DNA of 64,000 bases from contig OZ024740.1 in NCBI GenBank assembly GCA_964016885.1, forward strand, positions 247,256,001 to 247,320,000. Reading direction: 5' to 3'. A model generated the notes under the pieces. It ran no database searches. It saw only the letters and a program-made list of their open reading frames with translations, and was not told the DNA's origin. Below are positions 1,040 through 63,128 of the stretch, in pieces. The DNA is from Eledone cirrhosa (lineage: Eukaryota). Positions within the stretch are counted from its first letter, which is position 1; every line of letters starts with the position of its first letter. Position numbers and translations under genes: made by a program.

Positions 1040-2757
<1,718 letters not shown>

Positions 2758-3308: not shown

Positions 3309-3702
3309 TTATTGTTCATTTAGCTTGGGTTTGAATTTATCAATACAATTCTTTTCTTTGATTTTTCTCTTGATTTCACTTGGGCTGTGTAATTTGTAGA
3401 ATGGAAATGTTATAAATATTCCCTGACCACATGTTGCTAGATGGTTACTTAGGGGTATCTGACGGACATTTGGGTCTCTGATTTGTTGACGGTGTACCCG
3501 TGCACGTTCCGATAGTGCATTTCCAGTTTGACCGACATATAGTTCCTCACAATTCGGGCATTTAATGCAGTAAATTAGATTTCTGCTTTTGCAGTTCATA
3601 TTTGCATTTGGGAATATTTTTCCAGTTTTTGTTTTCATATATTGACCGGCGTGTATGGATTGACATGTGCCGCATCGACTAACATTGCATTTAGATACAG
3701 TG
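3309..3702 (-). pseudogene. Penelope-like (Neptune-type) GIY-YIG endonuclease C-terminal fragment
   Basis: RCGTC linker, then CKSRNLIYCIKCPNCEELYVGQTGNALSERARVHRQQIR...HLATC...PFYK...PKLN; an inverted copy of the linker lies at ~3727-3870 (+). Confidence 0.85.
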
Positions 3703-4319
3703 AAGGCTTAATCACAGATCGATCTTTGACTCTTAGTAAAAGACAGCCAAAAAAGTTGAAGCAATTGCTAACAAAAGCAAAGTTTGACCTTAACAACAAA
3801 GACCAATCATTCACTGTATCTAAATGCAATGATAGTCGATGCGGCACATGTCAATCCATACACGCCGGTCATAAACGATCTTAACCAAGATGATATTTAC
3901 CAAAAAGAAGGACAAGTCAACATCATTGGATACCATCAGTGTTGCAGGTGTTATATCAGAGTTTTCCTTCTCCTAGAATTCTGCCTTGACAAAGGCTAAG
4001 GGGTCATCCCGGTGATTTGGGATGGCCATTGACTCTTAAGAGCTCCTTTGCCCTTTGACAGGTTTTGTTTTTAGTCCTGCAGGATGTCCAAAGTCACCCT
4101 CCTCACCAAGAAAACTTGGTGGGGTTGCCAGTTTAGTCGCCAACAAACCCGACCATGAAACAGGTTGTACTGGGATACATGTTACCAGTAGCACACACTG
4201 GTATATATATTTATACCAGTAGCACCATCTGGTATGTTTGTATGTATATATACATATACATACAGACATACAAACATATATATACATATATATATACATG
4301 TATACACATATATTCACTT

Positions 4320-7503: not shown

Positions 7504-7574
7504 TATTTTATTATGCGCATTTCAAAAACAAATATCATCATGCAATAATATTTGTGTTTTCATCAGATAAAATA
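7504..7574 (-). ncRNA. Type I hammerhead ribozyme (TATTTTAT stem I family)
   Basis: Minus: TATTTTAT-CTGATGA-AAACACAAATATTAT..ATGATATTTGTTTTT-GAAA-TGCGCA-TA-ATAAAATA; stem III palindrome ATGCGCAT. Confidence 0.85.
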
Positions 7575-8090: not shown

Positions 8091-8389
8091 ATTAAAAAGA
8101 ACAACAAGTAATGTAAGTAAGGATATATTGTGAGATGAGCATGAGTAAGTTAGATGAAAGGGTGAAAAAAATAATGAATTGAGGATGAATAATCTAACGT
8201 CAAAAAATGTTTATGTTTACGAAGGATTTGTGCAAGGTAATGTAGAGTAAGAATGTATTGTATTGTGTAATAATTGTTTCTATGCTAGGCAACATTGAGA
8301 AAAGGTACAGATTAGGGGTTAGACATTAAAAGAAAAAGAGAAGAAAGGGAAAATGAAGAAAGGGAAGTGATAAATAGGAGTGATATGGA

Positions 8390-9817
8390 ATGAGTAATAT
8401 TATACTTGAAGCTAGACGCACAGTAGTGCACTTTGAAAATAGTTATTGGGTCCGCAGGGATAGACTCTCGGAATTCGACATTACGATGGGTTCTAATGAT
8501 TCGGCGGAGGTCACGGATTTGGTTGGGATCTATATAGCCCATAGACTCCAGAGCGAATTTACGGACCTCCACGGCGGAATATACCGCGACGATACACTTC
8601 TATTAGTCAAGAATATGAACAAACAAAACCTAGAAAGGCGACGTAAAAACATTAGGAAACTTTTCTTAGAACTAGGGCTTAATATTACCTTTGAACACAA
8701 TCTTAAGGTGGTCAACTTCTTGGATGTTACCTTCAACCTTAATAACGGTAATATAGAGCCATTTCACAAACTTAATGAAAATCTTAAGTACGTTAATGTA
8801 AAATCGAACCATCCTCATTCCATTATTAAATCTATCCCTAAAAATATATCCATAAGGATCTCCCGACTGTCGTCTAATTTGCAGACCTTCAACGAGCATG
8901 CTGAATATTATAATGACGCACTTAGAAAAGCTGGTTACTGCGAGAAAATTGAATATCTAGACGATAACCACATAAGTACTATGAATAAAACACATCTAAG
9001 TCGAACTAGTATTGCACCACACACACACATCAATAGGCATACTAACAGGTGCAAACCAGCAAATAGAGTCAGACGTAGAGAGTACATATGGTATAACCCC
9101 GTGTACAATTCTTCTATTAGCACTAAGATTATCTCACAATTCTATACACTAATCAATAAACACTTTACAACTTCACATAAATACTATAAAATCTTTAACT
9201 CGCGCACCATTAGACTCTCATACTCCACTGCACCTAACATAGAACAACTAATTAGAAAACTCAACTCAGCAATACTGAATAAGTACATCCCTAATGACTC
9301 AGCGCACCAGCATAGCAACATGCAACGCACTAACACGCAACCGCAACCCCACCAAACTATCCAGGATTCTACTGCAAAACATAAAAATAGTTGTAACTGC
9401 ACCAAACCAGGTACGTGCCCACTGAATAACCAGTGCCTAGCACGCAATATTGTCTACCGGTGTACAATAAATTCCGGGACCAACAAATGGTATTACGTCG
9501 GATGTACCGCAACTTCTTTCAAGGCTCGCCTATACCAACATCGATCTTCGATCAGGCACGAGGAAATGCGCTCCGTAACAACCCTCGCCGATAAAGCCTG
9601 GCAGCTTCGGAGGAACAATCAAGCGTTCTCCCTTGATTGGCAAATTATTGCAGCTGCGCCTGCATATCAGCAAAATCATCGATTCTGCAAGTTATGCAAT
9701 TTAGAGATATACTGCATTTTAACGTCGGTAAACAAACTTTTGAACAGCAAAATTGAACGTTCTCTATACTGTAACCATCGTTTGAAAACGACTTTTTCTT
9801 TTTTTAAATGCATATAA
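8390..9817 (+). CDS. Penelope-like retroelement RT (C-terminal half) plus GIY-YIG endonuclease, 5'-truncated but uninterrupted
   Basis: FDITMGSNDSAEV.DLVG, YRDD, FLDVTF, WYNP, CNC..CPL..QCL linker, IVY..YVGCT..FKARL..H, CKLC..E; no start codon context upstream. Confidence 0.9.
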   Translation: MSNIILEARRTVVHFENSYWVRRDRLSEFDITMGSNDSAEVTDLVGIYIAHRLQSEFTDLHGGIYRDDTLLLVKNMNKQNLERRRKNIRKLFLELGLNITFEHNLKVVNFLDVTFNLNNGNIEPFHKLNENLKYVNVKSNHPHSIIKSIPKNISIRISRLSSNLQTFNEHAEYYNDALRKAGYCEKIEYLDDNHISTMNKTHLSRTSIAPHTHINRHTNRCKPANRVRRREYIWYNPVYNSSISTKIISQFYTLINKHFTTSHKYYKIFNSRTIRLSYSTAPNIEQLIRKLNSAILNKYIPNDSAHQHSNMQRTNTQPQPHQTIQDSTAKHKNSCNCTKPGTCPLNNQCLARNIVYRCTINSGTNKWYYVGCTATSFKARLYQHRSSIRHEEMRSVTTLADKAWQLRRNNQAFSLDWQIIAAAPAYQQNHRFCKLCNLEIYCILTSVNKLLNSKIERSLYCNHRLKTTFSFFKCI

Positions 9818-10226
9818 TGTTACCTTTTTACACCAACGTTTGCAAATTTCTGTCTTATATGTTTATACACTAGATATGGCTTTCTATAATAATAGTATTA
9901 AACACTGTTTTTCTGGACCCCTTTAGAAATAACCTGCTACTATAATAGCCCTAATAACTTGTCTGTGACATTGTACCACTTTGACCCCTCTAACTAAATT
10001 TTGTCCGAACAACACCACTAGAAGTATCTACTTCCCAGCCAACCTTAGCACGCCTCATTAAGCTAACTGCTGCCAAAACATTCTCTCTTCACAATCTCTA
10101 CTAGTCTGACAGTCTTAAACCCTAAGACTCCCTCCACCTTACTCACTTCCCTCTTCCCCTTCTCTTCCTACCTCCTTCTTTATCTTTATCTAGTGTATAA
10201 AATATTTTCATATCATTCTAATACAA

Positions 10227-10343
10227 AGGTCTGATGACATGGTGTGTAGGCTTACAGTGTACTTTCGGTTTTTGATAATATTTGTGTATTATTCAAATAG
10301 CGAGGTATAGGTAACTCATACACTATAGAAACAATTGTTACCT
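10227..10343 (+). ncRNA. Type I hammerhead with ~90-nt stem II in the 3' pLTR of the 8390-9817 Penelope-like element
   Basis: AGGT-CTGATGA-C-ATGGTGTG...TACACTAT-A-GAAA-CAATTG-TT-ACCT followed immediately by AATAAA (10344-10349). Confidence 0.8.
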
Positions 10344-10380: not shown

Positions 10381-10700
<320 letters not shown>

Positions 10701-15293: not shown

Positions 15294-15366
<73 letters not shown>

Positions 15367-15655
15367 CAAATAACGAAACGAAATTAAATTTCGTTTCGTT
15401 TGTAACTCACTTTTGTATGACTGACGCTTAAACAATTAAGTTAAAAATGTACATCTACATATGCATACTAAAATACTAGTGTGCATATGAATACACACAC
15501 GTATACATATGTAGATGTAACAAGTCTTTCACTGGTTACTTTACTGTGAGTAACCCAGCTATTCTGTATGTAAACACACAGACAAACCGGTTTTTAGAGT
15601 CATACTGGTTTTCGAGGAAACACCTTTCCTCTATTCTCCAGAAAGCCAGACAAGG

Positions 15656-15700
15656 AATATTGAACTAGTTTCGTTGTTGTTGCAACTCATCAGCAATATT
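15656..15700 (-). ncRNA. Minimal type I hammerhead ribozyme
   Basis: Minus: AATATTG-CTGATGA-GTTG-CAACAA-CAAC-GAAA-CTAG-TT-CAATATT. Confidence 0.9.
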
Positions 15701-16158
15701 TACCTATCTACCGGCCTTTCTGGAGAATCGTAAAAGCACATATCGTTATATGCTTTTTCTATGAAAATTAGTAGTGGGCAGACTAATTTGTATAGAGTGT
15801 GAGTACGCACCGGTTCAGCGGAGACGATAAAAACAAATAACGAAACGAAATTAAATTTCGTTTCGTTTGTAACTCACTTTTGTATGACTGACGCTTAAAC
15901 AATTAAGTTAAAAATGTACATCTACATATGCATACTGAAATACTAGTGTGCATATGAATACACACACGTATACATATGTAGATGTAACAAGTCTTTCACT
16001 GGTTACTTTACTGTTTCGTTATTTGTTTTTATCGTCTCCGCTGAACCGGTGCGTACTCACACTCTATGCAAATTAGTCTGCCCACTACTAATTTTCATAG
16101 AAAAAGCATATAACGATATGTGCTTTTACGATTCTCCAGAAAGGCCGGTAGATAGGTA

Positions 16159-16203
16159 AATATTGCTGATGAGTTGTAACAACAACGAAACTAGTTCAAT
16201 ATT
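16159..16203 (+). ncRNA. Minimal type I hammerhead ribozyme
   Basis: AATATTG-CTGATGA-GTTG-TAACAA-CAAC-GAAA-CTAG-TT-CAATATT; palindromic stem III ACTAGT; predicted GUU cleavage triplet. Confidence 0.9.
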
Positions 16204-16625
16204 CCTTGTCTGGCTTTCTGGAGAATAGAGGAAAGGTGTTTCCTCGAAAACCAGTATGACTCTAAAAACCGGTTTGTCCGTGTGTTTACATACAGAATAG
16301 CTGGGTTACTCACAGTAAAGTAACCAGTGAAAGACTTGTTACATCTACATATGTATACGTGTGTGTATTCATATGCACACTAGTATTTCAGTATGCATAT
16401 GTAGATGTACATTTTTAACTTAATTGTTTAAGCGTCAGTCATACAAAAGTGAGTTACAAACGAAACGAAATTTAATTTCGTTTCGTTATTTGTTTTTATC
16501 GTCTCCGCTGAACCGGTGCGTACTCACACTCTATGCAAATTAGTCTGCCCACTACTAATTTTCATAGAAAAAGCATATAACGATATGTGCTTTTACGATT
16601 CTCCAGAAAGGCCGGTAGATAGGTA

Positions 16626-16670
16626 AATATTGCTGATGAGTTGTAACAACAACGAAACTAGTTCAATATT
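16626..16670 (+). ncRNA. Minimal type I hammerhead ribozyme (second tandem copy)
   Basis: Identical to 16159-16203. Confidence 0.9.
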
Positions 16671-16905
16671 CCTTGTCTGGCTTTCTGGAGAATAGAGGAA
16701 AGGTGTTTCCTCGAAAACCAGTATGACTCTAAAAACCGGTTTGTCTGTGTGTTTACATACAGAATAGCTGGGTTACTCACAGTAAAGTAACCAGTGAAAG
16801 ACTTGTTACATCTACATATGTATACGTGTGTGTATTCATATGCACACTAGTATTTCAGTATGCATATGTAGATGTACATTTTTAACTTAATTGTTTATAT
16901 ATATA

Positions 16906-18086
16906 TACTTTAACTTTAATTATATCTCATAAAATAATACAACTGGTTTTTCCACATTATACATATTGTTAGCACCCCAAACACTTAAATTGGGTTTATA
17001 TTTAAATATAACCTAAGGTTTGTTGAGTGAGATGGTTACTAGTGAGAGTTTAGCTTTAAACTATCTCTGTTATTGTATTAAATATTTACTCTTGATTGGC
17101 CAGAGGTGTTTATTTCCAGGTACCTTATGAATTTGACTTTCCGTATTTATTACTGTTGTGAAATATTGTGGCTTTTTTTGGATGTAACTTCTCTGTTTTC
17201 TAGCCTAAGAAAATATATATATATGCCTACGTATATAATTACATGCATATAATTATTTATTTTCTTTTATTAATTGAGTTCTTTACACGAGGAATCAATA
17301 TTGGTTTTGAAATAACTAATTAACCCGCGTGTGTTTTATATTTTACTCTTAATTCGGCCGGAGAATTATATTCCCATTTGCCCTTTATAGCATAACTTTC
17401 TGCATTTACTGCGGTTATGAGAAGAGGTTCTTATTCGGGTACAACTTCTGATTTAGCCTAAGAAAATATCTATATGCGTGTGTAATTTATACAAGCATAT
17501 ATTTATTTTTTAATTTTCAATTGAGTTGTTAAACACGTTGGATTGATAATGTTTTCAAAAAAACTAATTAACCCGCGTGTATATTATTATTTTTTTTCCT
17601 CATTTCGTGGATCGTGGGTTGTCTCCCCTTCCCGCTTCGTGTCGCTATGATACTTCCTCAGCCAAAAACTGCTGGAATTTCAAATTTGGCGGTCATTCGA
17701 GGCGAGAGAGAGTAACTTTACGAACACGATTTTTGACAGCGGTAAGAAATTATTTTCTTATATCAAAGTTTAACGGGCTTCCACTGATGATTTATAAGTA
17801 CCCACCTAAATATATTCTTACATGAATATATATTAGGCTTCTACATAAACTGGAAACATTCTCCCAACTTGTAGAAAACTTATAATGAAACAATTGTTTG
17901 GAAAGAGATATACTTTAACTTTAATTATATCTCATAAAATAATACAACTGGTTTTTCCACATTATACATATTGTTAGCACCCCAAACACTTAAATTGGGT
18001 TTATATTTAAATATAACCTAAGGTTTGTTGAGTGAGATGGTTACCTGTCAGAGTTTAGCTTTAAACTATCTCTGTTATTGTATTAA
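16906..18086 (+). mobile_element. ~1.0-kb non-coding HHR element with ~175-bp direct terminal redundancy
   Basis: 16906-17081 repeated at ~17911-18086; HHR directly upstream of the second copy; internal diverged duplication 17201-17332 / 17454-17580. Confidence 0.75.
17779..17903 (+). ncRNA. Type I hammerhead with ~96-nt branched stem II
   Basis: TTCCA-CTGATGA-T-TTATAAGT...ACTTATAA-T-GAAA-CAATTG-TT-TGGAA. Confidence 0.82.
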
Positions 18087-18110
18087 TTATGTATATATAT
18101 ATATATATAT

Positions 18111-18179
18111 TTATTAAAATAACAGATTAAAGTTTAAGCAAAGAATCGGTGCTTAAACTTTAATCAGTTATTTTAATAA
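18111..18179. repeat. Short hairpin (30-bp arms, 9-nt loop); left arm plus loop also present at ~533-566
   Basis: TTATTAAAATAACAGATTAAAGTTTAAGCA / TGCTTAAACTTTAATCAGTTATTTTAATAA. Confidence 0.85.
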
Positions 18180-18266
18180 ATATTTGCTCTACGGTTCTTA
18201 TATATTTGATATATATTTATCCTTATCAAGCCCTCTTTGGATTTTAGTCTTCAAATTTATTATTAT

Positions 18267-18331
<65 letters not shown>

Positions 18332-18720
18332 GAGGTTATATTTAATTTGTTGGGATTCAACAAGCTTAACATTTTTTATAACTGATATAAAGCACTCAAC
18401 AATTTTGTTTTATAAAGAAATATTTAAGTTTTGACTTACAACTATTAATATAATATAAATACTTGTTTTAATTTTAATTTTTAATTTTTTTATTTTTTTA
18501 TTTTTTAATTTTTTAATTTTTAATATTAATATTAAATTAAATCTTTAATATTATTTCAATATAATTTTAATCTTTAATTTTTATTTTTTATTTTTTATTT
18601 TTTATTTTTTATTTTTTATTTTTTATTTTTTATTTTTTATTTTTTATTTTTTATTTTTTATTTTTTATTTTTTATTTTTTTTATTTATTTATTTATTTAT
18701 TTATTTTTTTATTTTTTTTT

Positions 18721-18753
<33 letters not shown>

Positions 18754-19280
18754 TTATTATTTTTTTTTTATTTATTTATTTTTTTATTTATTTATTTTTT
18801 TTATTATTTTTTTTTTATTTTTTTTATTTTTTATTTTTAATCTAATTTTTCAACCTATCATTATAAATATTGTATTCACAACGTAATGAACCCTACATTC
18901 TAAATATTATTCTTCCACGTTAATCTTATTTCTTCTTTCACTTCTTTCACTTAGATATATTTACGCTATGTATATTTTTCCATTAAAACTTATTTCTTCA
19001 TTCAATCTATCTCCACTATCACTATGTATAATCGTTCTTTCTTTTCTCTTCTCTCTTTCTCCTTTCTTTTCTTTTTTCTCTCTCCCTTACATATCATCTT
19101 CTTCCAACAGTTTAATTTAAATAAACCGTTATCTTTTCAATTTTTCGGACACTCATGTGCATACTCACTCATAACTTTGTATTACCCTCAATAAAATATC
19201 TCCACTATCCAGGAAACTCCAACCGTTAAGGTTGTCTTTTTTTTTCGGGTATGTCAATATTTATTTATAAAACAAATTTG

Positions 19281-19346
19281 TATTTTATCTGATGAAAGCG
19301 CACCATAATTTGCCTTGGTTGCCCTTGAAATATAAATAGTAAAATA
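19281..19346 (+). ncRNA. Type I hammerhead ribozyme (TATTTTAT family) at the end of a pyrimidine-rich PLE-like 3' region
   Basis: TATTTTAT-CTGATGA-AAGCGCACCA...TGGTTGCCCTT-GAAA-TATAAA-TA-GTAAAATA; flanks resemble 62000-62195. Confidence 0.75.
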
Positions 19347-19384
19347 AACATGGTTTTATAAATATAGTTTCCATTTATTAATAT

Positions 19385-19451
<67 letters not shown>

Positions 19452-19829
19452 CAAAGGAGATTGATATATGATATATAACGACCATGTGGCTCTATGATAA
19501 CTCTGAGAGAATTACAACTAAAAATCCAAGACCCCAGAGTCTGCATAGAAAATAACATATATAATATTTTTCAGGGAATAATCTAATTACGTTAAAAAAA
19601 CGTAGACAGAATAAATCTTATACTTACATTGCTAATAAGTTTTTACAAAGCCTATATGGTACTATTTCACGCAGCAAAAATCATCAACATTTACCGTTGA
19701 TTAACATCGGCATATGGTGAAGCCGAGAGCTGCAATTATCATTAAACTTGAAATTTTGAATAGACATTCCCTATTACAATGTGAACAATTCCATGATCAT
19801 TATCTTCAGCAAGGGAGGATATGTCCTGT

Positions 19830-22826: not shown

Positions 22827-22854
22827 GTATATATATATATATATATATATATAT

Positions 22855-22878
22855 AACCCTAACCCTAACCCTAACCCT
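22855..22878. repeat. Short interstitial telomeric tract (AACCCT)4
   Basis: AACCCTAACCCTAACCCTAACCCT = (TTAGGG)n on the minus strand. Confidence 0.85.
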
Positions 22879-28822: not shown

Positions 28823-29341
28823 GATAAAGAATGAAAACGCAGCCTATTGGAGTCCGAAATTCTTTTTAACGGCAATGTGGAATGGCTTAACATTTGGAAT
28901 GTCCGAATCACTTAGCGTAAGTCCTTAAAATTCATTATATTCCATTTGTTATAGCACGCATACAGACAAACACAAAAATACAACACACAACAAAAAAAAA
29001 AAAAAAAAAAAAAAAAGGATTTCTCTGGAAATAGATTTTTGCTTCCAACATTCTGTGGAAATTACAAATGGAGATATTTCGTTTTCCCGCGTTCAGCCTG
29101 TCTTCTCCAATCCCAGCCATCTGATTGGCTGCATCGTGCCTCATGACGGCTTCATCACGGACACATTTTAAATCAGCCATCTTGGATTATCTGACCATCA
29201 ATTTTCATGGAAAATGATTTTTTTTTATTATTAAAATTTTCTTTGGAATATTTTTTTTTAAAGAAAAAAATTACCAGCAATCAGCAGCAACACCTGGCTA
29301 ACTATTGACCAACACCAAAAAGTCATCAAATACGTGGCACC

Positions 29342-30127
29342 ATGAGTCAACATCATTTGCCGTCCTTCGCAGGCGACATCAAGTTGTGGTTTGCGCAGCT
29401 GGAATGTTTCTTCGAATTGACGAGGACAAAGGAACAGCATAGGCTGAAGGTCCTGATCAATGGCCTACCTGTTTCCTTGGCATTCTCGGTGAGGGACGTT
29501 GTGACGGATTTAGACGCCGACGTTACCTACGGCTCATTAAAAAAAGAAATCCTTCGCCGAAATACCAAGTCGGTAGAGAGCCGTTTTCGGGAGTTGTTGG
29601 ACGATGCTCAAATGGGTGACAGGAAGCCGAGCTCCTATTTGCGACATTTGCGGGAGTTGAGCGACTCTCAGGGGATTGACACCCCCTTCATAAAGCAACT
29701 TTTTTTCTCACGCCTACCACCAAGTGCGCAAGGAATATTGGTCAATAGTTTAGAGAAGGATTCATTAGAACAACTTGCCGCGTCCGCGGATAGGATACTT
29801 GAGGTGGACTCGAACAGCAATCAGCATAATGCTTATGTGGCTTCAGCTTGCGTCCCTCCACGTAGTTCTTCTGTGGCCGACGGCAAACTGTTGGAGTTGA
29901 TTGAAGCTCTCACCAAAAAGGTAGAGGATTTGACGGTACATCAGAGAGAGCCTTCTCAACGTTTGAGGTATCGTTCGCCGCCGTCCTCTATTCATCGCCA
30001 GCACTACAACGCAGGCAACAATAATTCTTCGTTGTGTTGGTACCATGCTAACTTCGGCAGTAGGGCGCAACGTTGTCGCACGCCCTGTGATTATAAGAGA
30101 TCGGGAAACGCAAAGCAGAGCCACTAG
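29342..30127 (+). CDS. gag: Gag of the Ty3/gypsy element
   Basis: LPSF..D..LWFAQLE..F, GDRKPS..LRHL, C-X2-H-X9-C-X3-C ([18 protein letters not shown]). Confidence 0.92.
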
Positions 30128-30149
30128 GAGCGGCTAGTGAACTCTGGGA
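30103..30149 (+). promoter_or_regulatory. -1 programmed ribosomal frameshift signal
   Basis: G_GGA_AAC in the gag frame (30103-30109), 7-nt spacer, hairpin AGAG-C-CACTAG-GAGCGG-CTAGTG-AA-CTCT. Confidence 0.8.
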
Positions 30150-33100
30150 AAACCGACCGAACCGCCATCTTTTCGTATACGACCTGCGGTCAAAAAAATA
30201 TTTCCTTGTCGATACTGGCGCGTCGCTGAATATTTGGCCTGTCAGTTATCTCAAAAAAAGCCCAGCCGAAGCAGATATAAATCTACGAGCAGTCAACCAC
30301 ACGGCCATTCGAACGTATGGGCAAATTTCGCTTCCGCTTCGGTTAAAAAATTTGCGGCGTGATTTAAGGTGGAAGTTTACTGTCGCCGACTTGCCATACG
30401 CCATTTTGGGAGCGGACTTTCTCCACCATTTTTCCTTGTTGGTGGACATTCGCAGACAACGCCTTGTTGATTCTGAAACAGGCCTTTCTTTCGAGGGTTC
30501 AGAGCCGGACGTCGCCACCGTCAGCCCTTCCTTTTTCTTGGCTGAAGTGGGCAACCAGTATCAAAGCCTGCTACATTCATTCCCTCAGTTGACGCAAGGA
30601 AAGTTAAGAATAACTAGCCCGGATCATGCGATTGAACACTTCATATCCACTACAGGTCCACCTGTTTTCTCACGTCCTCGAAGATTGTCTACAGAGAAGT
30701 TGAAAGCTGCACGCCTTGAATTCGACCACATGCTGGAATTGGGAATAATTCGGCGCTCCACAAGTCCTTGGGCATCGCCTCTGCATATGGTACCTAGATC
30801 TTCTGGGGATTGGAGACCGACGGGTGACTACCGACGCTTAAACGCGATTACTGTGCCTGACCGTTATCCAATCCCGCATTTGCAGGATTTTGCGTCGTCA
30901 TTGCAGGGTTGCAGAATCTTTTCTAAGCTTGATTTGATCCGCGCTTATAACCAAATTCCGGTTAACGAGGAGGATATCCCAAAGACTGCTATTGCCACTC
31001 CTTTCGGATCGTTCGAGTTCCTCACTATGCCTTTCGGCCTTAGAAACGCTGCAAGTACCTTCCAACGATTTATGGATGATATTACTCGGGGCCTGGATTT
31101 TGTGTACACGTATATCGACGACGTGTTGATTGCTAGTTCTTCCCCTCAGCAGCATTCAAAGCATCTGGATCTCGTATTTCGACGTTTACAGAGATATAAT
31201 GTTCGAATTAATGCTTCCAAGTGTGTTTTCGGCTCGACTTCACTAACATTTTTAGGCCATCTGATTGACGCCGATGGTATTCGACCTCTTCCTGAGAAGG
31301 TTAAGGCAGTATCGGATTTGCCTCCGCCAAGTTCACTGCGTCAATTGCGTCAATTCCTGGGCCTTGTAAATTTTTATAGGCGATTCGTACCTGGTTGTTC
31401 CAAATTGCTGTTCTCGTTGACAGAGATTTTTAAGGGTTGCCGGCGTAAGAATATGGACATTTCCTTAAATGAAACGCAGCTTGATGATTTTAAAAAAGTG
31501 AAAAAGGCGTTAGCGAACGCGTCTTTGCTCGTCCACCCAGTACCCAACGCCGAGCTATCGCTCTGTGTTGATGCTTCGGATAGCGCCGTGGGCGCAGTCT
31601 TACAGCAGAAGGGTGATGGGGTACAGCAACCACTCGAGTTCTTTTCGAGGAAGTTAAAGCCTGCAGAAACTCGCTATAGCACCTTTGGAAGGGAGCTATT
31701 AGCAATTTATTTATCAGTGAAACATTTTGCTCATGTACTTGAAGGTAGAACATTCACCATTTTCACTGATCATAAACCCTTGACGTTTGCTCTTCGAACT
31801 AAGGCAGACAAATACTCGCCCAGAGAAACGAGACATCTGGACTTCATCTCACAGTTCACGAACGACATTCAACATATTCCGGGTTCTTTGAATACAGCGG
31901 CCGATGCGCTGTCTCGCCTGCCGATCGCATCGATTTCGTCTTCCGAGGAGATAGATTTACATCGAATGGCAGCTGCCCAACCCACTCTCGAATCGTTGGA
32001 TGTTACATCGCCAGAGTTTGTGCATTGCAAACTGAAATACATTCCGATCTCAACTGCTGACGGACAGATACTGTGTGATGTTTCGTTGGACTCACCACGA
32101 CCTCTAGTCCCAATGGAACATCGACGAACTGCGTTTCTCGCTTTACATGGCATTTCTCACCCAGGAGTATCAGCCTCAGTAAAACTCATAACAGCCAGAT
32201 TTTTCTGGCCTGGTATGAGACGTGACATTGCTGCTTGGTGTCGTTCCTGTGTCGCTTGCCAACAAGCGAAAGTTCATAGACATGTTAAGGCTCCTCTCGG
32301 AACCTTCACCTGCCCCGATGCAAGATTTCGTCACATTCATGTGGACATCGTCGGCCCGTGGCCGGTTAGTCGTGGTTTTTCGTATCTTTTGACGATTGTT
32401 GACCGTTTTTCGCGTTGGCCTGAAGCCGTCCCTATAACAGATATCACCGCCGAAACCACAGCCCGTACCCTCGTATCTTCGTGGATCGCTCGTTTCGGTG
32501 TACCAACCACCATAACAACGGATCGTGGTCGTCAATTCGAGTCTAACCTCTTCCGAGAGCTAACTCAAATCCTGGGGGCTACTCGAATAAGAACCACGGC
32601 TTACCACCCAGCCTCAAACGGAATGGTGGAAAGATTCCACAGGCAGCTCAAAGCCTCCTTAAGGGCTTCCATGGACTCTTCACGTTGGAGCGAGTACCTA
32701 CCCATTGTATTGTTGGGTATTCGGTCGACGGTAAAGGTGGACCTTGGGTTCTCCTCTGCCGAATTAGTTTATGGTACGCCTCTGGCGTTACCGGGGCAAA
32801 TGCTGGCCCCTTTTGACCTGACTTCGCAGGACCCCGCTTCCTACGTGTCCCGGCTTCACTCTTATTTCAAGGATCTACCACCGATGGGCACTAGGAAGCA
32901 GACTGTAAAAACTGCCGTCCCAAGGGATATTGCCTTGTGGACCCATGTGTTCGTTAGAGACGACGCCGTGAGACCCCCTCTTCAACGGCCGTACTCTGGA
33001 CCCTATCGTGTGCTTGCTCGCACAGACAAACATTTCACACTGGACATTCGGGGTTCCAGGGAAACGGTTTCCGTTGATCGTCTCAAACGAGCAAACCTGG

Positions 33101-33258
33101 ACAATGACACAATGACACTTGAAACTCAAATGCCCCCCTCTTTTTCTTTGCCACACAGGCCTATTTCTTCCCCTCCCCCACCATCAACACACAGAACTAC
33201 GACCCGTTCTGGGCGAAGGGTGCATTGGCCCCGTAAGCTATGCAGTAATATAAACTGA
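30103..33258 (+). CDS. pol: Pol (protease-RT-RNase H-integrase), reached by -1 frameshift from gag
   Basis: The frame of ORF 30352-33258 is open from 30103 and contains FLVDTGAS; then YIDD, DAS..AVGAVL, TDHKPL, HHCC (H..SHPG..C..CQ), [21 protein letters not shown]. Confidence 0.93.
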
Positions 33259-42043: not shown

Positions 42044-42132
42044 GCATATTACAATTGTTTCGATATCGATAAGCTCAGTAGATAATCAAGGAATTAGGGC
42101 CCAACTCTTTTTCGACATCTCATCAGATATGC
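42044..42132 (-). ncRNA. Type I hammerhead with ~58-nt stem II
   Basis: Minus: GCATAT-CTGATGA-GATGTCGA...TCGATATC-GAAA-CAATTG-TA-ATATGC-AAATAAA. Confidence 0.88.
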
Positions 42133-51764: not shown

Positions 51765-54862
<3,098 letters not shown>

Positions 54863-57466: not shown

Positions 57467-58300
57467 TAAATTGAAAAAGTGAAGAATAACATGGTCAACT
57501 GTACAAACAAGGAAATTTATTTACAGTCTAACAATTGTTTCTATGATAGAGTTGTCTAAAAGTTGCTAAACACTGAAGGCAGTGCCACTCAATTTAAAAT
57601 ACATGACGAAATGATGGAGATAACATGTATTTTAAATTGAGTGGCACTGCCTTCAGTGTTTAGCAATTTTTAGACAACTCCATCATAGAAACAATTGTTA
57701 GACTGTAAATAAATTTCCTTGTTTGTACAGTTGACCATGTTATTCTTCACTTTTTCAATTTTATTACTCCAAGATATACTTACATAGGAATACAATTGAA
57801 GTCAGAAACTCGTCATCCACGTAAACCTCTTGTTGAGTCATACAACGCCGTACGCTTAAACTATCCACGAAAAGAAGTTTTCACCTCTAATCGGATTACC
57901 TTTAACGACATCTTGTTATCCTCTATACCAAGCTCCCATTGGGTTGAGCAACCAATTTTACGCACGGCACTAACATCGAAAAATACTATATAGGAATATC
58001 CCTAAAAAAAACGTACCTATACCTACAAATAAGGAATATATGCTCGGTATGATACAAAGAACTAATGACATTATCCGCAGAATCAGATGGAAAGCACATC
58101 ATTACATAATTAAAGGACATAATAATAGTGATAGAAATAACGGATCTACCAGGGAAAAATATGAGTTTAAATCCTGCAAAAATCCACCAGACACCCCACA
58201 TCTTGATGCCTTTGAACTTGATCTCATGAACATGATAAAAGAAATTAAATTCAAAACACGAACCCATCACACAAACTGCAAAATAACATCAATGCACTTA
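57467..58300 (+). mobile_element. Penelope-like 5' end: pLTR with HHR plus ORF N-terminus, preceded by an inverted pLTR copy
   Basis: 57467-57605 is the reverse complement of 57624-57762; then KNVPIPTNKEY...IQRTNDIIRRIRWKA..., Y.FKS...P....L..FE.DL..MI..IKF, typical of PLE ORF N-termini. Confidence 0.75.
57604..57703 (+). ncRNA. Hammerhead with expanded stem II, clipped at the 5' edge of the core by the inversion junction
   Basis: (c)TGACGA-A-ATGATGGAG...CTCCATCAT-A-GAAA-CAATTG-TT-AGAC. Confidence 0.6.
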
Positions 58301-58389
58301 TAAGAAAATGTTTAGACTAGTGTGTGTTTATATGTGTTTGTTGTTATTGTACTTGTGTATATATATATTTATTTATTTGTTTATATTTC

Positions 58390-59205
58390 CTATTGTTTGT
58401 TTGGGTATGGTTGTTGTTATTCCATACGTTCTTTCTGTTCAAATTTTGTCTTCTTAGTTCTATCTCAGTTGCTTCTCTGATTTGACTACCTGGTGAGTCA
58501 TTTCTATGCTTAGATATTATTTTAACTTCTATGTTGTCTATATTACCGTCATGTCTTTGTCTGGCGTGTTCATATAGTACTGAACCTTTTTTTGTTGTTG
58601 TTTTTTTTCGTCCTTCTAGTTCCCCCCAGTGTTGGTCTATTCTTTCTCCTATGCTTCGAGCTGTCTGGCCTATGTATGTCGCTGTCATGTTTCTGCAAAT
58701 ACCCTCTGTACATCTTTTGCTATAAACTACATTTCTAGGTTTACAATTTATCTGGGGGTACATTCTAAATATAACACATTTCTTATTCGTACAGTGTGTT
58801 TTCTTAAGGGGGTATGTTTTGTTGATCAGGGATTTTTTTGGTAGTTCCTGGCTTTTCTACCACTTTAATCTTTAGATGGGTCTTTCTTAGGGCCTTTCTA
58901 CATTTCTTAGCTAATTTCCCTCCAGGGGTAGCATCCACGAACATGACACTCTGGTATCTCTGTTTGTGGTACCATGAAGTGGCTTTCCCTATCTTATGTT
59001 TAGTCCTATCTAAGTTATTCCTTGATTTGCTCCTGTGTAATGGGCAAATTCCTTTCATGTCCATTTCTATGAGGGTCTTATACTTCTCCGTGGCTCCTTC
59101 GTATACTCTGACTCTGTCTCTTTGGTTATAGCCAGAGAACTGCATGCGGTTGATGAAGTGTTGGATGTGTCTTTCCAATGCAGTTGGGTCGCACATGCGG
59201 GACAC
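58390..59205 (-). pseudogene. Penelope-like RT-thumb plus GIY-YIG fragment (frameshifted)
   Basis: F.NRMQFSGY...R, VMFV.ATPGG.L, KVVEKPG, C...NVVY..RC...C...YIGQTARS..ER..QH, SVL.EH....H, Q.REA..I. Confidence 0.85.
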
Positions 59206-60027
59206 ATGCGATCAGAATATTAAAGGAGAATGGTGGGAAGGAGAGGAGTTCCGAGAGGTTGTGAGGGGGGAGTCGTGGAAATACATTAAAATAACATGAA
59301 AAAATTAGAATAAAGGGACAAATTTAAAAATAAATATAACACGAGTGGGACAATAAATTGAAAACAAGTGGTGAAAGGGTGTGAGGCGTGTAGAGGTGGT
59401 GGTGGATGGAAGGGGAGGGAGAGGGGAGAAGGAAATTGGGGGTCCGAGTGGGGAGGGTGGAAGGTGGGGTGTGTGTTTGTGTGTAGGTGTACGTGTGTGT
59501 GTATGCGTGGATATGAGTGTGAGAGTTTGGGGGAGAACGAAGTTCTATGCTCGGGTTTTAGGAAAACCAGTGTGTACATGGGGTGGGGTGTAAGACTGCG
59601 TGTGTGCGCGTGTGGATGGAGATCGGTCGGAAAGGGTGGGGGAGACAGAGCGTGCGGAGTCCGGAGGTGGTGTGGGTGTATGTGAGGATATGCACGTGTG
59701 TATGTGTGTGTGTGTTTTGTGTGGTGTAGATACGTGGGAATGTATGGTTGCGTGTCTGCGAAAATGGTGTAAGTGTTTGTGTGTGTATTGGTGAGTGGTG
59801 TTTCGATGTGTGTGTAGACGGATGGTGAAATTCCGAGTAGTATCTCGTAGATATCCTGAGAGTGTGACCAGTGGTGTAGGATCCGTGGAATAGGTGATAG
59901 TGTAGGATCCGTGAAAAGTCCTACCGTATGCGGTAGGACTTTTGAGCACTCGATGCTCTTACAGAGCAGAGTATAATATTACATAAGAAACGGAGAATCA
60001 GTGGTGCGACGAATTAAATTTTATTAA

Positions 60028-60120
60028 ACATATTACAATCGTTTCTCTGGCGACCAGCTCGAGGCACGATCGATGCAATGATCGAACCTGACTCTGAAAT
60101 CGCAAGATCCTCAGATACGT
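60028..60120 (-). ncRNA. Type I hammerhead with ~62-nt stem II
   Basis: Minus: ACGTAT-CTGAGGA-TCTTGCGA...TCGCCAGA-GAAA-CGATTG-TA-ATATGT-TT-AATAAA. Confidence 0.8.
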
Positions 60121-60258
60121 CTCGATTCTTCGAAGCAGAGTTTCCAAAAATCTTTGCTTCGAAGAATAGAGACGTATGTGAGGATCTTGCGATTTCAGAG
60201 TCAGGTTCGATCATTGCATCGATCGTGCCTCGAGCTGGTCGCCAGAGAAACGATTGTA
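60034..60258. repeat. Inverted repeat, 107-bp arms, 11-nt spacer; right arm carries a core-mutated HHR (GTGAGGA)
   Basis: 60034-60140 is the reverse complement of 60152-60258; explains the mirrored ORFs 60014-60214 and 60078-60290. Confidence 0.93.
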
Positions 60259-60303
60259 TATATATATATATATATATATTGGCAGCATGACCCTCCCAAA
60301 GTA

Positions 60304-60389: not shown

Positions 60390-60454
60390 TATTTTATTAT
60401 TTATATTTCAAGGGTAACCAAGACACCATTGGTACGCTTTCATCAGATAAAATA
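60390..60454 (-). ncRNA. Type I hammerhead ribozyme (TATTTTAT family)
   Basis: Minus: TATTTTAT-CTGATGA-AAGCGTACCAA...TTGGTTACCCTT-GAAA-TATAAA-TA-ATAAAATA. Confidence 0.78.
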
Positions 60455-62329: not shown

Positions 62330-62761
62330 ATATATACAAGGGATAACAAAATATTGTTATAGGTAATCCAGTTAGAGGTTGTGAATACTTCGTATTGTGG
62401 ATAGTTTTAACGTACGGCGTTGTTTGACTCAACAAGAGATTTAGGTAGGTGACGAGTTTATGATTTCAGTTGTAATCCCATGTAAGTTTATCTTGGAGTA
62501 ATAAAATTGAAAAAGTGAAGAATAACATGGTCAACAGTACAAAAAAAGGTATTTATTTACAGTCTGACAATCGTTTCACTGATTAAGTTGTCTAAAAATT
62601 TCTGAACACTAGAAGCAGTGCCACTCAATTTCAAATAAGATGTTAGCTTAATCAGATCATCTGAGACAACTACAAAATATCCGGTAAATTTAGAAATTCA
62701 AATTACAGCATCATTAATAATATTAATAATAAAGCTAACATCGTATTTGAAATTGAGTGGC
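62330..62761 (-). mobile_element. Diverged relative of the 57606-57930 Penelope pLTR, with a 30-bp inverted stub (62732-62761)
   Basis: Reverse complement aligns by eye with 57620-57930. Confidence 0.75.
62562..62667 (-). ncRNA. Hammerhead-like motif with expanded stem II and CAGAUGA core
   Basis: Minus: GTCT-CAGATGA-T-CTGATTAAG...CTTAATCAG-T-GAAA-CGATTG-TC-AGAC. Confidence 0.6.
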
Positions 62762-62789: not shown

Positions 62790-63128
62790 GAGTGGTATTA
62801 CGTGGGATCAACGGCAACATCGTTTAAATCTCGATTATATAGGCATTCTTACTCAATAAAACACCAGAGCCAAAGAAATGTAACAACTTTAACAGAAAAA
62901 GCTTGGACGCTCAGGGATAGCGATCAAAAGTTCACCCTAAAATGGGAGAAATTAGCTAAAACCCAAAGCTTTTCCAGGAGCCAAAATTTCTGCAAATTGT
63001 GTAATCTTGAGATTTATTACATAATCACACACAAGAAGAAACTGCTGAATAACAGAATTGAACGAACATTATTCTGCCGTCACAGAACTAAAACCCTTTT
63101 TTCCCACTACAAGCCGAATATTACATAA
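62790..63128 (+). pseudogene. Penelope-like GIY-YIG C-terminal fragment, related to 8390-9817
   Basis: WYYVGSTATSFKSRLYRH..SI.H...R.VTTL..KAW.LR...FCKLCNLEIY.I....KLLN..IER.L.C.HR.KT.FS. Confidence 0.85.

Follow-up and report, generated by a model that had tools for sequence, protein, structure and literature searches.

A type I hammerhead with a branched 96-nt stem II on an abundant non-coding tandem repeat of Eledone cirrhosa, likely mobilised by Penelope-like elements

INTRODUCTION

The locus described here raises the question of whether two halves of a hammerhead core that lie 96 nt apart can belong to a genuine ribozyme and, if so, what carries it and what the intervening RNA does. The window (the whole 64,000-nt stretch of Eledone cirrhosa DNA that was analysed) is AT-rich and microsatellite-rich and comes from a genome of 3.0 Gb. 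An initial annotation of the window described the motif as a hammerhead with stem II expanded by a closing helix and two internal hairpins, assigned it to a variant class with further members in the window and predicted that standard descriptors would probably miss it.

The in vivo role of the hammerheads of Penelope-like elements (PLEs) is described as a mystery (PMC7761336). Strand-swapped dimers have been proposed for some of them (PMC4209133), and a circular RNA model with a PLE partner has been put forward in PMC4209133 and PMC7229834. The core search described in PMC8557442 used spacers of 7-17 nt, and the same paper remarks on 'half cores' 35-50 nt apart.

RESULTS

A hammerhead with a branched stem II

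The sequence at 17779-17903 contains the CUGANGA and GAAA..UH core elements with A15.1-U16.1, and its three helices with an open stem I have the type I layout (Table 1). Folding of the insert returned the closing helix and both hairpins that the initial annotation had described, with a z-score of -6.8 against 200 shuffles. A strict descriptor found three long-stem-II motifs in the window; 60 shuffles yielded 0.03 on average (maximum 1). From these data we conclude that the motif is a genuine hammerhead of type I, the stem II of which is branched and 96 nt long. The canonical metazoan type I definition comprises a short helix II, a loop 1-loop 2 contact and a match to Rfam clan CL00010, and with a stem II of 96 nt the motif falls outside it.

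Positions 10.1 and 11.1, just before the closing helix, form a U.U mismatch in the window copy and a G-C pair in older subfamilies; U10.1-U11.1 is known from natural hammerheads (PMC3088659). In most copies of the family to which the motif belongs (family A), GGGC upstream of stem I (17775-17778) could pair with a GCCC linker (17800-17803). This pseudoknot was rejected: its sequence is conserved, but it shows no covariation, is broken in the window copy and is not general.

Table 1. Coordinates of the hammerhead at 17779, its host element and related features of the window
Feature	Position	Strand	Remarks
Host element of family A	16903..18090	+	one ~1005-nt non-coding unit plus ~190 nt
Old internal duplication, ~260 nt	17074..17593	+	71% identity
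Type I hammerhead, family A	17779..17903	+	predicted cut between 17898 and 17899
Stem I, 5' strand (TTCCA)	17779..17783	+	pairs with 17899-17903 (TGGAA)
Core CUGAUGA (DNA CTGATGA)	17784..17790	+	only N7 (17788) differs among amplified subfamilies
Insert between core halves, 96 nt	17791-17886	+	closed by TTATAAGT/ACTTATAA
Expanded stem II	17792..17885	+	8-bp closing helix, 17792-17799/17878-17885
Inner hairpin 1	17805..17837	+	pairing kept, sequence variable; 3 pairs with double changes
Inner hairpin 2	17839..17876	+	sequence nearly invariant across subfamilies
GAAA, palindromic stem III, U16.1 and H17	17887..17898	+	stem III ACAAUUGU; CAATTG
5'-truncated ORF, Hydra-clade PLE of family D	8384..9817	+	RT C-terminal part and GIY-YIG
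Family D hammerhead, intact	10227..10343	+	90-nt single-hairpin stem II; in pLTR of PLE
Family F hammerhead, intact	42044..42132	-	58-nt stem II
Family E hammerhead, intact	60026..60122	-	62-nt stem II
Hammerhead-like motif	1118..1204	-	55-nt stem II; core and closing helix; stem III imperfect, non-palindromic
Family H stub at inversion junction	57603..57700	+	core AUGACGA, C3 lost; lacks stem I 5' strand
Family H copy	62562..62667	-	79-nt stem II; core CAGAUGA, U4 mutated

Long stems II in the window and genome

Further long stems II had been reported in the window. Those at 10227, 42044 and 60026 belong to intact hammerheads; the cores at 57604 and 62562 are broken, and stem III at 1118 is imperfect. 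The proposal that all share one architecture did not hold, as the stems at 10227, 42044, 60026, 1118 and in the 57604/62562 family are single interrupted hairpins and the multibranched form occurs only in the 17779 family. Their inserts had been called unrelated, which is correct for the six window examples but not genome-wide: among the 12 insert families that we told apart, C, C2 and H are related, as are B and J. The remaining families showed no clear similarity in inserts or flanks in a comparison of all but family L, and an architecture or motif common to all families was sought in the insert comparison and not found. Family G was discarded as a long-stem-II family on finding an inner short core. 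Nor do these motifs form the discrete class that had been proposed: stem II ranges from 11 to 105 nt between families, and since stems II of 14, 30/31 and 36 nt occur in the same window, its length is a continuum.

The hammerheads with a 30-36-nt stem II (7504-7574, 10535-10605, 19281-19346 and 60390-60454) have a palindromic TGCGCA or a TATAAA-type stem III, and the last of them sits 846 nt behind the end of a Hydra-like ORF. Head-to-head inverted stubs occur at 57480-57720 and 60026-60260, with the turn within or just before the hammerhead core. The window also contains a short interstitial (TAACCC)n tract (22854-22878) and the ORFs of a Gypsy-type LTR retrotransposon (29309-33258; RT, RNase H and integrase; 1053-aa open frame).

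The whole genome was searched with patterns consisting of the exact core, a spacer and an ACRAUYGU stem III, and reversed patterns served as controls. Stems II of 80-110 nt gave 11,736 matches (13 in the control) and those of 45-75 nt gave 3,710 (31 in the control); spacers of 8-38 nt with the same stem III gave 8,598 (28 in the control). A structure check for stem I, a closing helix and the absence of an inner core was passed by 25 of the first 30 loci in the 80-110-nt group and by 19 of 30 in the 45-75-nt group. Stems II of 45-110 nt hence number 15,446 raw, or about 12,000 when scaled by the structure check, compared to 8,598 raw and unchecked matches for 8-38 nt. That these motifs are merely chance pairings of two short core strings within AT-rich repeats is extremely improbable. 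The sampled matches that failed the strict check (5/30 and 11/30) are what chance would produce, but it would not produce the excess over the reversed patterns in either length group, the covariation in family A or the way long-stem-II motifs sit at the 3' end of PLEs. A chance origin was already refuted for families A and D.

At the gathering score Rfam matched nothing in the window, not even the short hammerheads, and this blank is therefore by itself uninformative on stem II. When matches with E up to 10 were considered for 15500-19500, Hammerhead_HH9 (RF02275) recognised three short neighbours with a 14-nt stem II (38.6-41 bits, E 3e-8 to 2e-7) and not the 17779 motif. The expectation that standard descriptors would probably miss this motif was therefore correct, as it had no Rfam match up to E 10 and lies outside the 7-17-nt spacer range given in PMC8557442.

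Selection on the ribozyme fold

The initial annotation had made conservation of the closing helices among copies a test of its reading, and in both family A and family H pairing is kept with compensatory changes (in family H, in a set of only three copies). Among 10 subfamily representatives of family A, 93.8% of cells were paired and six pairs had changed on both sides, three in hairpin 1, one in the closing helix and two in stem III; all slid controls were far lower. An alignment of 26 copies was 95.4% paired, with three double-changed pairs. As the control ignores kinship and the structure was derived from the same sequences, this covariation is support rather than proof.

We also examined 127 copies chosen regardless of their core. 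No variant was common to at least three copies at 27 core, stem I and palindrome positions, and the 5' strand of stem I had no shared variants; at N7 one variant was common to 21 of the 127 copies. Within the young subfamily, paired and unpaired positions of the insert varied alike (6/62 vs 7/34, p 0.54). We conclude that folding of the insert has to be preserved and that the sequence of hairpin 2 is under constraint.

Stem III was palindromic in 215 of 227 copies (CAATTG in 181, CGATCG in 24 and CGGCCG in 10). Its two central bases cannot pair intramolecularly, yet they change together, which argues for strand-swapped dimers. A modelled strand-swapped dimer had -61.6 kcal/mol, compared to -50.4 kcal/mol for two monomer hammerheads, and the unconstrained dimer (-64.6 kcal/mol) lay 3 kcal/mol below the swapped double hammerhead. 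The predicted lowest-energy fold of the monomer buries the core, and the active fold is 4.1 kcal/mol higher. Together with the joint changes in stem III, these models suggest that the family A ribozyme likely self-cleaves as a dimer via its palindromic stem III.

Origin of the expanded stem II

It is quite possible, though in our judgement somewhat improbable, that the expansion of stem II is tolerated and has no function in itself, in which case any stable helix closing the core would suffice and length would drift from 11 to 105 nt between families. The inserts of most families are unrelated and have no common architecture, spacers of 8-38 nt accompany the same stem III in 8,598 motifs, and the Hydra hammerheads published in PMC8557442 have a short stem II, all of which is what drift would leave. 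Such drift is harder to reconcile with a hairpin 1 that covaries and a hairpin 2 that is invariant in sequence across 10 subfamilies, both far from the core. Moreover, the 21 copies with inserts of 40-79 nt carry mostly different deletions and show no large shortened subfamily.

A second possibility, which we consider distinctly unlikely, is that the expansion of some families is a small retained spliceosomal intron, the splicing of which would turn a long stem II into a short one. Families B, J, C2, I, H and L have GT..YAG pairs within stem II (p 0.004-0.054 against shuffles, uncorrected), their removal would leave a 9-bp stem with a loop of 4-11 nt in C2, H and L, and PLEs are described as retaining introns (PMC8557442, PMC4209133). 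However, the splice-pair scoring was crude and 11 families were tested without correction, an intron of 44-68 nt would be short, families C, D, E and F have no GT..YAG pair, and a search for intron-less C2 copies found none. In family A only 19 of 120 distinct inserts have even a weak GT..YAG pair and the window copy has none; an intron was rejected for this family on the lack of splice-like pairs.

Host element of family A

The element carrying the 17779 hammerhead has no ORF of 120 aa or more (16903-18090). The window copy starts about 9 nt past the upstream cut site and ends ~190 nt past the cut, in (TA)n. Sister subfamilies have a unit of ~740-760 nt, compared to 1005 nt here, and the 260-nt duplication may account for the greater length. 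A family pattern found 2,777 intact copies genome-wide and none in the control. Insertions lie in (TA)n. Their 3' end is constant, at about +189 to +195 from the cut, their 5' truncation varies, and some are multimers of up to 3.6 units. Such insertions, with 3' ends fixed internally, truncated 5' ends, partial tandems and microsatellite targets, are characteristic of PLEs (PMC8557442). Like non-LTR retrozymes, family A consists of tandem units that are non-coding and contain a single type I hammerhead. The window copy is inserted at the end of a 467-bp tandem repeat (15360-16897), which contains a hammerhead with a 14-nt stem II and is accompanied by an inverted copy.

Insertion ends as footprints of the template

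Variants within insertions were compared between units. Downstream of the cut, in 187 segments, 6 of 25 doubleton variants had both occurrences within a single insertion, in successive units (null mean 0.06), and a major marker agreed in 33 of 35 pairs; upstream of the cut 5 of 16 doubletons did so (null 0.03). Private variants common to both insertion ends indicate that, for the most part, a single template served for consecutive units, as a circle would. Homogenisation of the tandem at the DNA level could contribute to the shared variants. Contigs from sequencing runs displayed nothing beyond DNA-type variation and the tandem joint.

Of the 777 matches in the genome to an anchor downstream of the cut, the first 100 were taken; they yielded 88 insertions, or 87 after one inverted duplicate was dropped. 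Among these sampled insertions, 5' ends fell at +2..+17 in 8/87 cases at the 3'-most cut site and in 6/13 cases after the second cut site, and 7/26 fell at +158..+192, the start zone of the RT itself. Six TA-rich control sites gave 0-8%, and the background was about 2% per 16 nt. The 5' end of the window copy was scored as +9 rather than -7 because the extra matching letters belong to the neighbouring 467-bp repeat; when this copy and one complex copy were removed, the second-site count was 4/11 (p 0.013 against 9%). In a length-selected set that included the window copy, 13 of 76 5' ends lay at about +2..+9. Two or three of eight ~740-nt sisters stop at the second site, and none of four insertions of older subfamilies stops just after it. 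No such accumulation was seen in family D, an intact Hydra element, where the 5' end lay directly past the cut in 1 of 100 rows and, at the upstream site, in 1 of about 10. Three insertions start just after the cut with their first 15-20 nt duplicated or joined to the element's own 3' end, as template restarts predict.

As the rate of 5' ends at the first site is no higher than at TA-microhomology sites, microhomology suffices there. It was rejected as the sole cause of the pile-up since it fails at the second site, and 5' transduction from a single master copy was rejected since the flanks differ. The main rival for the pile-up is a transcription start near +5. With an internal promoter at this position, linear transcripts of 1.2 units or multimers would be copied with little or no cutting in vivo, and the conserved fold would be a handle for the PLE protein. 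Such a scheme would fit the intact 3'-most site in about 90% of copies, the absence of a pile-up in family D, the location of PLE promoters and start sites in pLTRs (PMC8557442) and the report that uncleaved RNA was the main substrate in vitro, with no reads ending at the cut (PMC11167929). We nevertheless consider it unlikely, because it leaves unexplained the private variants of successive units, the stops at the start zone of the RT and the fact that conservation coincides with the catalytic positions while N7 varies freely. The insertion ends of family A instead suggest a cleaved or circular RNA template.

Penelope-like elements behind the long-stem-II hammerheads

Full-length relatives of the family D element have open frames of 778-784 aa and 3017-nt tandem units with a hammerhead in each repeat. 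The encoded protein has the RWK, DKT, CxCX5C linker, CxxC and CxH motifs given as marks of the Hydra clade in PMC8557442. With a single ORF for RT and C-terminal GIY-YIG, a length below 3.1 kb and (TA)n targets, family D (8384-10343) agrees with the definition of this clade, as judged by motifs rather than by a tree. In families D, B, C, I and L the long-stem-II motifs lie 420-900 nt behind the ends of Hydra-like ORFs (450-900 nt for B, C, I and L), and one 30-nt motif is also found behind such an end.

Several further observations concern PLEs in and near the window. At 62802-63113 the end of a Hydra-like ORF is followed, at about 64011 beyond the window, by the family L hammerhead (92-nt stem II, palindromic CACGTG stem III). 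Four loci of family D have two preferred 3' ends, at about +48/53 and +162/164 after the cut, with the ORF start at about +212; the 'tail' is longer than the 30-40 bp reported for PLEs. Other GIY-YIG PLE fragments lie at 3309-3707, 53082-54191 and 58344-59211, of which the first two have a CX4CxxC linker and are Neptune-like by motif only; a short hammerhead (2873-2911) follows the first. A search for the carriers of families E, F and G found less than 400 nt of upstream sequence common to different loci, and no PLE-like ORF in the 35 copies that it covered. A GIY-YIG fragment near E/F/G copies was rejected as a sign of the carrier, as the two rows represented one locus.

Family A had no ORF-bearing relative and no similarity to Hydra flanks among the loci compared, so that we infer its PLE mobiliser. 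Membership of the Hydra clade would entail an ORF of its own or homology to a Hydra pLTR, and it has neither; family A works like a PLE passenger and is not classed as a Hydra member. Its insertion pattern indicates that it is likely mobilised by the enzymes of a PLE, probably one of the Hydra clade; (TA)n or microsatellite targeting is also described for Neptune and Naiad (PMC8557442).

DISCUSSION

We hold with moderate confidence that 17779-17903 is a branched-stem-II hammerhead on a non-coding tandem repeat of 0.74-1.0 kb, that its self-cleavage likely takes place in dimers and that the repeat likely owes its mobility to the enzymes of a PLE, probably of the Hydra clade.

The hammerheads of Hydra-clade PLEs (PMC8557442) are similar: they have a type I layout, lie near the 3' end or in the pLTR, have a stem I that is short and an extra base preceding stem II, in most cases have a near-palindromic AC..GU stem III, and are associated with (TA)n targets. 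They differ in stem II: in File S2 of Craig et al. 2021 (PMC8557442) the stems of all 26 Hydra rows measure 3-7 bp and their loops 3-10 nt, compared to 55-105 nt here. The nearest published case is spike-moss PLE-X1, with two motifs that have a loop 2 of 29-34 nt and are marked in the same file as deviating from canonical; given this precedent, an expanded stem II is not wholly new. We found no description of a 55-105-nt stem II in PLE hammerheads in the literature searched (Arkhipova 2017 and Lunse 2017 lie outside its scope).

The minimal dimeric PLE hammerheads (PMC4209133) share the palindromic stem III, a stem I of 4-5 bp, association with PLEs, the lack of a recognisable loop-loop contact and predicted cleavage as dimers. 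Their helix II is 7-8 bp, whereas here it carries an extra domain of 40-90 nt and positions 10.1/11.1 are often mismatched. Metazoan non-LTR retrozymes (PMC7229834; bioRxiv 10.64898/2026.07.22.740005) likewise consist of dispersed, non-coding units that are arranged head to tail and each carry a single type I hammerhead, a PLE is their proposed mobiliser, and the family A unit is within the reported sizes (51-972 bp or >1000 nt). In contrast, retrozyme hammerheads are canonical and compact, and most family A insertions do not reach the length of one unit, their internal 3' end being fixed; retrozymes are defined by expression and circles, whereas family A is known here from genomic sequence. 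The Rfam clan CL00010 model (RF02275, Hammerhead_HH9) describes the same catalytic core and type I layout but misses 17779. By these comparisons family A appears to behave as a non-LTR retrozyme whose hammerhead is of the dimeric PLE type.

The cycle that we propose would begin with tandem transcripts being cut at 17898/17899 to give unit-length RNA, the ends of which would either be ligated or be kept together by stem I. The PLE protein would nick (TA)n DNA and copying would start about 190 nt downstream of the cut; the RT would then read round past the junction, giving head-to-tail copies with a fixed 3' end. It would often stop on its second arrival at an unligated, already copied end, as may have happened in the window copy. 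Internal initiation by the RT and protein-assisted cleavage are described for an Anolis PLE, for which insertion in vitro did not need cleavage (PMC11167929). Throughout the cycle the long stem II would have to remain base-paired to hold the core halves together, with the outer helix and hairpin 1 kept as structure and hairpin 2 as sequence.

The initial annotation suggested that the insert may bind the RT or act as a regulatory module. At a guess, hairpin 2 would be the likeliest site of protein docking or a tertiary contact; neutral expansion of stem II is about as likely as a docking role. A bolder proposal, which we put forward as improbable, is that stem II is a swappable socket for large RNA domains, with the branched domain docking the Hydra RT and holding a nicked-circle template, and with a retained intron in sister families making cleavage dependent on splicing. 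Were this so, over ten thousand Rfam-invisible ribozymes in one genome would record, through insertion ends, the action of PLE hammerheads in vivo.

Current models undercount ribozymes, as here stems II of 45-110 nt are commoner than those of 8-38 nt for the same stem III. Published claims of hammerhead-less PLEs rest on short spacers and may need rechecking. The young and abundant family A offers genomic footprints of template reuse and of the stop at the cut site, and with its natural palindrome and helix variants one can test directly both whether dimers are cleaved and what the insert does.
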